Assembly (NCBI RefSeq): GCF_044324875.1 | Contig: NZ_CP172185.1 | From: Escherichia coli | Lineage (GTDB): Bacteria; Pseudomonadota; Gammaproteobacteria; Enterobacterales; Enterobacteriaceae | DNA length: 64,000 nt | Reading direction: 5' to 3' (one strand) | Shown here: in pieces, positions 46,120-49,100 of the stretch | How positions within the stretch are numbered: position 1 is the first letter of the stretch | Layout of the letters: the number at the start of each line of letters is the position of its first letter | Made by a program: the position numbers

Positions 46120-49100
46120 TTAAAGTGCACACGAGACGCAGCCTTCAATTTCAGTGCCTTCCAGCGCCATCTGACGCAGGCGGATGTAATAGAGCGTTTT
46201 GATACCTTTGCGCCAGGCGTAAATCTGCGCTTTGTTGATATCGCGAGTGGTGGCGGTATCGGGGAAAAACAGCGTCAGCGACAGCCCCTGATCGACATGG
46301 CGAGTCGCTTCCGCGTAAGTGTCGATGATCTTTTCTGCGCCAATTTCGTAAGCGTCCTGATACAGCGCCAGATTCTCGTTAGTCATAAACGGGGCAGGGT
46401 AGTAAACGCGTCCTGTTTTGCCCTCTTTGCGTATCTCTACTTTCGCCACAATCGGATGAATACTCGACGTAGCATGGTTGATATAAGAGATAGAACCGGT
46501 TGGCGGCACCGCCTGAAGATTCTGGTTGTAAATGCCGTAGCGCATCACGTCGTCGCGCAGCTGCGCCCACATCTCACGGGTAGGTAACGTAATACCGCTA
46601 CGGGTAAACAGTTCGCCAACTTTCGCCGTTTTCGGCTGCCAGTTCCCTTGCAGATATTGGCTAAAATATTCACCACTGGCATAGCGTGACTGTTTGAACC
46701 CGGCGAAGGTTTCACCGCGTTCGCGCGCCAGCAACATCGAGGTACGCAGTGCGTGCCAGGTGATGGTATAGAAATAGAGATTGGTGAAATCCAGTGCTTC
46801 CGGCGACCCATAAGCGATGCCTTCTCGCGCCAGATAGCCGTGTAAATTCATCTGCCCCAGTCCGATGGCGTGTGAGGCGGCATTTCCGGCTTCGATGGAC
46901 GGCACGCTGCGGATATGACTCATATCTGACACCGCCGTTAAACCGCGCACGGCAGTCTCTACCGTGCGGGCAAAGTCGGGGGAATCCATGGTGTGGGCAA
47001 TATTCAACGAACCTAAATTGCAGGAAATATCATGGCCTGTGCGGGCATAGTCGAGATTCTCGTCATACTCTGAGGCGCTGTTAACCTGCAAAATTTCTGA
47101 GCAGAGATTGCTCATATTTATGCGCCCGGCGATAGGGTTAGCACGGTTAACCGTGTCTTCATACATGATGTAGGGATAGCCGGACTCAAACTGGATTTCT
47201 GCCAGTCGCTGGAAGAAATCACGGGCGTTGAGGTATTTTTTGCGGATGCGTTCATTGGCAACCAGTTCGGCATAGTGTTCACTGATGGCGATATCAGCAA
47301 ACGGCTTGCCATAAACCCGCTCAACGTCATAAGGCGAAAACAGTGCCATCTGCGCATTCTCTTTTGCCAGATGGAAAGTGATATCCGGGATCACCACGCC
47401 CAGCGACAGTGTTTTAATGCGGATTTTCTCGTCGGCATTTTCCCGTTTCGTATCGAGAAAACGCAGAATATCGGGATGATGGGCATGTAAATAGACTGCG
47501 CCAGCACCCTGACGCGCGCCGAGCTGGTTGGCATAGGAAAATGCGTCTTCCAGCATTTTCATCACCGGAATCACGCCAGAAGATTGATTTTCAATACGTT
47601 TAATTGGCGCGCCCGCTTCCCGCAGATTCGACAGCAAAAATGCCACGCCGCCGCCGCGTTTCGACAGTTGCAGTGCGGAATTTACCGCCCGGCCAATCGA
47701 CTCCATATTGTCTTCAATACGCAGTAGAAAACAGGAAACCAGTTCGCCGCGCTGCTGCTTACCGCAGTTGAGGAATGTCGGCGTGGCTGGCTGAAAGCGT
47801 CCTGACAGCATCTCATCAGTGAGCTGCGCCGCCAGTGTTTCATCGCCTTGTGCCAGCGTCAGCGCCACCATCGTGACGCGATCGGCAAAATCTTCCAGAT
47901 AACGCTTACCGTCGAATGTCTTCAACGTATAGCTGGTGTAAAACTTCCATGCTCCGAGGAATGTCTGGAAACGAAACCCGCTGGCGTGCGCGTGGGCAAA
48001 CAGCGTAATGACAAAATCGCGAGAGTAGCGATTAAGGACACTTTCATCATAGTAACCTTCGTTAACCAGCCAGTTCAGGCGCTGCTGCTGGCTACTGAAG
48101 GCCACACTGTTCGGACGCACATGCGTCGCAATAAAGGCGTCAACGGCCTGGCGGTCTTTATCGAACTGAATGCGACCTGCGCTATCGTAAAGGTTAAGCA
48201 TCGCATTCAGAGCGTGATAATCCATCGTTTCCTGCGTCAGGCGTTCTACGGTTGTCGTTGCCAAAATTCGGTTACTCCTTTACGAACGTTTTCGATATCG
48301 CTTTGCGTACCCATGAGTTCAAAGCGGTACAGCCACGGCACGCCGCATTTCCGGGCTATCACATCTCCGGCGCGGCCATACGCCTCACCAAAGTTGCGAT
48401 TACCCGAAGCAATAACGCCGCGCAGCAACACCCGGTTGTGCTCGTCGTTTAAAAAGCGAATGACCTGTCGTGGCACTGCGCCAGCCGTACCGCCGCCGCC
48501 GTAAGAGGGCACGATCAGGATGTAAGGCTCGTCTACCTGAATCCGTTCCCGCTCATTGAGCGGGATGCGCACCGCGGGCAGTCCTAAACGTTCGATAAAA
48601 CGCTGCGTATTTTCGGAGCTACTGGAGAAGTAGACGAGCTGGCTCATGCACTGGCCGCGTGTGGTGCTGGATGCAGACGGTTGATCATGTCCGGGCGGAA
48701 ACCAGACCAGCTAAGATCGCCAGCAATCACTACCGGCAACTGACGAAAGCCCTGAGCACGCAGCACTTCCGCCGCTTCAGGAACGCGATCGACATTAATC
48801 ATTTCAAAGTCAAAGCCCCGGGTTTCCATCGCCCGTTTGGTGGCGTGGCACTGAACGCAATCGTTACGAGTGTAAATAGTAATGCGCATGATTCGTATTT
48901 CCGTTTAAAATGAAGATACGGCGCGATGATACGCGTCGGGTTGTCTCTCTGTTGATACAGAGATACTAGATGTAGTTGAAAAAAGATTCAACCACACAAT
49001 ATATAGCAAATAGTGGTCGAAATTACCCTGGGTATGAGCGTGACGGGGTAGGGGGATTTTTGTGATTCACCAGGCAAAAAGAAACCCCGAAGCCAGGCTT

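Follow-up and report, generated by a model that had tools for sequence, protein, structure and literature searches.

A derived amber codon in the nrdI-nrdE overlap of Escherichia coli is a lineage-wide and most probably neutral polymorphism

Introduction

The junction between nrdI and nrdE in Escherichia coli contig NZ_CP172185.1 (RefSeq assembly GCF_044324875.1) raises a narrow question about where one gene ends and the next begins. Both genes belong to the nrdHIEF operon of class Ib ribonucleotide reductase (RNR), which lies entirely on the minus strand and places nrdI between nrdH and nrdE. In the 64,000-nucleotide (nt) stretch analyzed here, hereafter referred to as the window, the nrdI reading frame closes at an amber codon, and the overlapping nrdE frame opens with TTG. 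Is the amber codon a sequencing error, a lesion private to one strain, the onset of gene decay, or an ordinary allele, and is the TTG start part of the same variation? We find that TAG is a derived, lineage-wide, and catalogued nonsense polymorphism whose neutrality, which we infer, is most probable, and that TTG, judged by its conservation, is the ordinary start of nrdE. The features on which the argument turns are the following.

48246-48647, minus strand: nrdI, 133 codons plus TAG (48248-48246), encoding the class Ib RNR assembly flavoprotein
46120-48264, minus strand: nrdE, 714 amino acids, intact, overlapping nrdI by 19 nt
48246-48248, minus strand: amber TAG at nrdI codon 134, derived; in nrdE, this C-to-T change turns codon 6, GCA (Ala), into GTA (Val)
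48237-48245, minus strand: AAC GCC TGA (N A stop), left over from the ancestral end of nrdI, untranslated in the nrdI frame and coding in the nrdE frame
48262-48264, minus strand: TTG start of nrdE, conserved, inside nrdI codons F128-W129
48275-48280, minus strand: Shine-Dalgarno sequence of nrdE, AAGGAG, 10 nt upstream of TTG, inside nrdI codons K-G-V

The junction compared with K-12

The reverse complement of positions 48237-48266 reads TTT TGG CAA CGA CAA CCG TAG AAC GCC TGA, i.e., F W Q R Q P stop N A stop, just as an initial annotation of the window had described the frame. That annotation took reference NrdI to have 136 residues with a C-terminal QNA and proposed that a single T-to-C change, from TAG to CAG, would restore this tail; it also allowed for this length being wrong and reference NrdI ending at TAG too. 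The length was accurate: NrdI of E. coli K-12 MG1655 has 136 residues, ends in ...QRQPQNA, and carries CAG at codon 134, so the stop is rightly called premature with respect to the reference and, as discussed below, it is derived relative to every outgroup examined.

Near the overlap, a 141-nt alignment of the window and K-12 reveals differences at two bases only. The first, CAG in K-12 versus TAG in the window, turns nrdI Q134 into the amber codon and nrdE codon 6 from GCA to GTA, i.e., A6V. The second, AAT in K-12 versus AAC in the window, is synonymous in nrdI and changes TGC to CGC in nrdE, i.e., C8R. The TTG codon, the Shine-Dalgarno sequence, and every base between them are the same in both. 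In K-12, where nrdI is annotated as 411 nt, nrdE starts 28 nt before the nrdI stop; the shortening of the overlap from 28 to 19 nt in the window is the sole architectural change, and the distance from the first base of TTG to the nrdI stop downstream accordingly falls from 25 to 16 nt. Within NrdI residues 1-133, the window and K-12 proteins differ only by A73V.

Frequency and catalogue status of the TAG allele

The frequency of the allele was determined in 5,426 complete E. coli genomes using 55-nt megablast queries centered on the variable base (position 28), which forces each 28-nt seed word to include it. T was present in 289 genomes, i.e., 5.3%, which is a frequency in a collection skewed to clinical isolates and not a natural frequency; 5,121 genomes carried C. 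The two counts add up to 5,410, which equals the number of genomes matching the 87-nt junction. The locus itself is present in 5,421 genomes, and five genomes gave no match at all. The identical 87-nt junction occurs in 160 genomes, including that of E. coli 042. Among C carriers, the exact K-12-type 55-mer (CAG AAT) was found in 3,100 genomes and the exact CAG AAC 55-mer in 892. The K-12-type 55-mer is thus the commonest in the collection, though its AAT, encoding NrdE Cys8, is derived.

The protein is also well represented in databases. In RefSeq, the 402-nt gene stands as an intact nrdI (WP_000080954.1) with no pseudogene flag, and the exact 133-residue product is found on at least 1,000 contigs in the protein collection and under the Swiss-Prot name NRDI_ECOLU, whose mnemonic denotes strain UMN026. 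Strains 042 and UMN026 are members of phylogroup D. The allele is already catalogued, and the 133-residue NrdI is a lineage-wide allele. The initial annotation, which regarded TAG as strain-specific, does not hold on this point. It had also wished a sequencing error to be ruled out, and such an error is excluded because the same T stands in 289 independently assembled complete genomes and the exact protein on at least 1,000 contigs.

Polarity and origin of the change

To establish which base is ancestral, outgroup junctions were collected from species-representative genomes using a degenerate DNA pattern for a 10-residue NrdE peptide, which gave at least 120 loci. Salmonella and E. fergusonii are absent from this DNA-level sample, and Salmonella is covered by protein only (PDB 1PEM). 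CAG together with an NrdI ending in ...QPQNA was found in E. albertii, Citrobacter werkmanii, Citrobacter sp. FP75, Enterobacter cloacae, and Superficieibacter electus; two Enterobacter-labelled genomes, sp. Bisph1 and sp. Ag1, have CAG too, but their tails read ...QPQSA and ...QKQSV. The junction of E. albertii is CAG AAC GCC TGA. TAG is derived because the outgroups have CAG. Of the two bases that separate the window from K-12, only TAG is therefore a change on the window side; AAC is ancestral and the AAT of K-12 derived. At the protein level, NrdE Arg8 (AAC/CGC, window 48243-48245) is shared by the window, E. albertii, Citrobacter, Enterobacter, and Salmonella, and Cys8 of K-12 is the derived state.

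We then asked whether the allele has one origin. When genomes are ranked by similarity to the 3.8 kilobases (kb) of nrdHIEF and sampled along the ranking, those at ranks ~1, ~92, ~184, and ~276 carry the 402-nt nrdI and those at ranks ~368, ~460, and ~552 the 411-nt form; a switch between ranks ~276 and ~368 fits the count of 289. In a tree of 1.4 kb rooted on E. albertii, TAG carriers fall into two groups. A simple clade test over this length failed through recombination, and a haplotype-block analysis was used instead. It delineated one further feature:

48218-48626, minus strand: 409-nt haplotype block of TAG carriers, comprising nearly all of nrdI and the first 47 nt of nrdE

Over this block (alignment positions 275-683), the window, KE47, and CFSAN061770 are identical and E21 differs at two sites, versus 8-12 sites for four CAG haplotypes; inside it, nrdI has acquired no further lesions. 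The simplest reading of these alignments is that the allele had one origin, followed by recombination in its flanks.

The operon as a whole is a recombination mosaic (window 45100-48900), with different parts of the window finding exact counterparts in different genomes. For instance, the window equals BEC1-S17 over the first 1,400 nt and, from alignment position ~1,800 onward, is near-identical to YZLc1-3, a CAG carrier; when all 3.8 kb are taken together, its identity to any complete genome is at most 99.4%. Mosaicism at nrdHIEF is general and affects CAG haplotypes too. A 132-residue E. coli NrdI variant, present on 12 contigs, has lost one glycine of the SYGGGGT loop (SYGGGT), carries the K-12-type A73, and ends in ...QRQP.

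Effect on NrdI

What the protein loses can be judged from family models, a predicted structure, and natural variation in the tail. All 127 profile positions of the NCBIfam equivalog TIGR00333 align to residues 5-131 of the window NrdI with 206.4 bits, compared to 207.8 bits for the 136-residue form and a cut-off of 74.65; the truncation thus leaves the score within 1.4 bits of that of the K-12 protein. Similarly, PF07972 is matched over profile positions 1-120 of 120 with 161.7 bits, against a cut-off of 27 and again within 1.4 bits of the K-12 form, and ends at residue 123. An AlphaFold2 model of K-12 NrdI, which was built from a 102-sequence alignment and has a mean predicted local distance difference test (pLDDT) score of 91.9, places the last helix at residues 115-131 and models residues 132-136 as coil. 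The mean pLDDT drops to 63 for residues 131-136, from at least 90 in each of the six preceding 10-residue blocks. The lost residues 134-136 therefore lie beyond both the family models and the last predicted helix.

We also surveyed the tails of 99 diverse NrdI proteins, using the conserved G-x-x-x-F-W motif as an anchor. Past FW, the tail varies between 0 and 20 residues and is four residues or shorter in 34 of the 99; it measures four residues in the window and seven in K-12. The shortest belongs to the insect symbiont Candidatus Pantoea edessiphila, whose NrdI ends right after FW (TAA) and whose nrdE keeps both TTG and GGAG.

Since the truncation falls beyond the last secondary-structure element, which ends at residue 131, the flavodoxin-like fold is retained according to the model. 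With only three tail residues lost, the NrdI domain is kept, and the 133-residue protein most likely still activates the manganese cofactor of NrdF.

The nrdE start codon and A6V

The initial annotation paired the amber codon with the TTG start of nrdE as two signs of local variation. TTG is indeed present as it noted, but it is no variant: codon, Shine-Dalgarno sequence, and surroundings match those of K-12. Among the matches listed, TTG and an upstream GGAG core are kept in 15 of 16 Enterobacterales loci, the exception being Providencia, whose only candidate is ATG; in nine Enterobacterales loci, the stretch from the upstream stop to the DYHALN motif contains no ATG, GTG, or TTG other than this one; and the Shine-Dalgarno match extends over 4-5 nt in 14 of the 16 enteric loci. 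Sequence conservation on this scale indicates that TTG is the correct start of nrdE and not a feature of the strain. Literature searches on the nrdE start codon turned up nothing relevant.

E. coli offers a single alternative:

48223-48225, minus strand: in-frame ATG at nrdE codon 14, the sole other start candidate in E. coli, replaced by CTG, CCG, or GTG in other genera

A start at this ATG was rejected, as the codon is not kept elsewhere, whereas TTG and its Shine-Dalgarno sequence are conserved and TTG is often the sole candidate. Across a wider range of bacteria, the start with the best Shine-Dalgarno match among the listed loci (n = 101) is TTG in 40, GTG in 35, and ATG in 26, a count that comes from a crude heuristic with unvalidated starts. 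By the same measure, nrdI overlaps the nrdE start in 86 of the 101 diverse junctions listed, and the stop-to-start geometry of natural nrdI-nrdE junctions varies widely.

An effect of the polymorphism on messenger RNA (mRNA) structure at the nrdE start was considered and rejected, since the predicted fold is unchanged and weak. From -40 to +40 around TTG, predicted folding energies are essentially the same for TAG (-11.6 kcal/mol), CAG-AAC (-12.2 kcal/mol), and CAG-AAT (-10.4 kcal/mol), all three folds are weaker than shuffled controls, and the z-score of the local fold is +0.93.

The missense change in NrdE falls at a variable position. TIGR04170 matches the window NrdE with 1267.9 bits (cut-off, 750), all 698 profile positions aligning to residues 15-714 and leaving residues 1-14, including A6V and R8, outside the model. 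Because the profile begins at residue 15, residues 1-14 constitute a non-conserved extension. Position 6 is alanine in K-12, E. albertii, Citrobacter, and Enterobacter, proline in Salmonella, and valine in the window; the crystallized Salmonella NrdE (PDB 1PEM) is a chain of 714 residues beginning MATTTPER. By this comparison of sequences, A6V is a conservative change in a variable N-terminal extension.

Operon integrity

The remaining genes of the operon are as follows.

48644-48889, minus strand: nrdH, 81 amino acids, intact, heading the operon
45151-46110, minus strand: nrdF, 319 amino acids, intact, closing the operon

In the window, NrdE ends in ...EGCVSCAL with its C-terminal cysteine pair intact. 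In E21, CFSAN061770, and KE47, nrdH, nrdI, nrdE, and nrdF are all annotated at full length, and in the stretch of BEC1-S17 examined, RefSeq annotates the genes as in the window, with nrdH, nrdI, and the start of nrdE intact. The gene does not look like a pseudogene: its stop lies beyond both family models and the last helix, the operon genes are intact, and RefSeq sets no pseudogene flag. Nor does it resemble a case of programmed read-through or recoding, as the stop is a derived state found in just 5.3% of genomes, the 9 nt downstream are simply the ancestral tail, and no stimulatory structure is predicted.

Two genomes deviate from this picture. In EFF60 (NZ_CP086678.1), whose TAG junction is identical to that of the window, nrdI is interrupted by an IS1 element ~70 nt upstream of the junction; the nrdI annotation is truncated, and nrdI and nrdE are separated. 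In E. coli LIM (NZ_CP026027.1), 40% of the 3.8-kb nrdHIEF query was matched; this genome retains nrdH and nrdI but apparently lacks most of nrdE and nrdF, and a gene for a DHA2 efflux transporter is annotated under the match.

Weighing the explanations

Several readings of the amber codon compete with that of a neutral allele. That the true base is C and NrdI has 136 residues deserves practically no credence: nothing beyond a single-base difference from K-12 speaks for an error, against T in 289 complete genomes, an 87-nt junction shared by 160 of them, and a protein that has a Swiss-Prot entry and is found on at least 1,000 contigs. Early pseudogenization, with the class Ib operon decaying in this lineage and the nonsense codon as its first lesion, is highly improbable. 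It could draw on the dispensability of nrdHIEF in iron-replete growth (PMC8463856), on the IS1 insertion in a TAG carrier, and on the few genomes lacking the locus. However, the loss amounts to three residues outside the domain models, the window has nrdH, nrdE, and nrdF at full length, as do E21, CFSAN061770, and KE47, nrdI has gathered no more lesions in the shared block, and 5,421 of 5,426 genomes keep the locus. A question of history rather than function is whether the C-to-T change arose more than once in E. coli, as the two groups of carriers in the 1.4-kb tree and the 132-residue, A73-bearing variant with the same QRQP end might suggest; we consider this unlikely, given that the four carriers compared differ at 0-2 sites around the change, versus 8-12 for non-carriers, and that the allele switch coincides with the similarity ranking.

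Another alternative is that the allele is adaptive or regulatory, i.e., that a stop 9 nt nearer to TTG, the Pro-UAG-A end, or A6V alters translational coupling or the NrdI:NrdE ratio, and that the allele was selected and spread by recombination. The stop does lie 16 instead of 25 nt downstream of TTG, nrdE does depend on a weak start codon inside nrdI, and the allele sits on diverged flanking haplotypes, as horizontal spread would produce. Yet the predicted mRNA structure is unchanged, mosaicism of the locus extends to CAG haplotypes, and the geometry of natural nrdI-nrdE junctions is widely variable, all of which makes selection improbable. In its most explicit version, the stop 16 nt past TTG and the Pro-UAG-A context would alter termination-reinitiation coupling and the NrdI:NrdE ratio of the iron-starvation RNR, and would for this reason have spread by recombination in an extraintestinal-pathogenic E. 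coli lineage; this conjecture is very improbable. If the 133-residue form did change the expression of NrdI or NrdE, it would be a minor, lineage-specific modifier of iron-limited growth.

Some observations weigh against a neutral allele of single origin. The new stop follows a proline and reads UAG-A, a context that would terminate slowly and less efficiently, and small effects on NrdI yield or on coupling to nrdE may follow from it. Within the Escherichia-Citrobacter-Enterobacter group, conservation of the QPQNA tail is high and could reflect some constraint, although the overlapping nrdE frame constrains these codons as well. As for the origin, carriers do not form one clade over 1.4 kb, so that a single event would rest on the shared 409-nt block, and the 132-residue variant shows that the allele also reached, or arose on, another nrdI background.

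On balance, a derived and most probably neutral polymorphism accounts best for these data. In the 28-nt nrdI/nrdE overlap, one ancestral transition from C to T would have created the amber at nrdI codon 134 and NrdE Ala6Val at one stroke. The allele would have arisen once and now marks an E. coli lineage of considerable size, with 042 and, via Swiss-Prot, UMN026 among its members (~5% of complete genomes); recombination would then have placed it on different flanking haplotypes. The loss is limited to Q-N-A of an unstructured, poorly conserved C-terminal tail, leaving the flavodoxin-like domain whole, and the NrdE change falls in the variable N-terminal extension. As in other enterics, K-12 included, nrdE starts at TTG behind a strong Shine-Dalgarno sequence, and the earlier stop does no more there than cut the overlap from 28 to 19 nt. 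The finding carries little biological weight, beyond illustrating how one single-nucleotide polymorphism in an overlap can be nonsense in one frame and missense in the other, presumably tolerated because both effects fall in unconstrained termini. For annotators and variant callers, the 133-residue NrdI is a normal lineage allele, neither an error nor a pseudogene, and the TTG annotation of nrdE is correct.

Comparison with known NrdI proteins

A close counterpart of this locus is that of E. coli K-12 (NrdI, b2674, NP_417160.1, 136 residues; NrdE, b2675), which shares the operon order, the TTG start, the Shine-Dalgarno sequence, and the overlap architecture. It differs in having Q134 and the QNA tail, A73 where the window has V73, and, in NrdE, A6 and the derived C8 where the window has V6 and R8.

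A short C-terminus as such is not unusual. Naturally short-tailed NrdI proteins of other bacteria likewise extend 0-4 residues past FW, and one enteric-like protein ends in FWQR; these are fixed states at the species level, whereas the short tail of the window is a polymorphism within a species.

The NrdI chains of the E. coli NrdI-NrdF crystal structures (PDB 3N39, 3N3A, and 3N3B) comprise, as deposited, 153 residues, i.e., a 20-residue tag followed by NrdI 1-133, and end in ...QRQP, the same C-terminus as in the window. They lack the QNA tail and carry the K-12-type A73 in place of V73; K-12 NrdI matches 3N39_C without mismatch over residues 1-133. Their end at P133 may reflect a truncated construct, a choice made at deposition, or a source strain with TAG. 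If the deposited chain represents the real construct, a 133-residue NrdI binds NrdF.

The protein closest to that of the window is the Swiss-Prot entry NRDI_ECOLU, corresponding to RefSeq WP_000080954.1, which is the same at 133 of 133 residues, including V73 and the ...QRQP end, with no difference.

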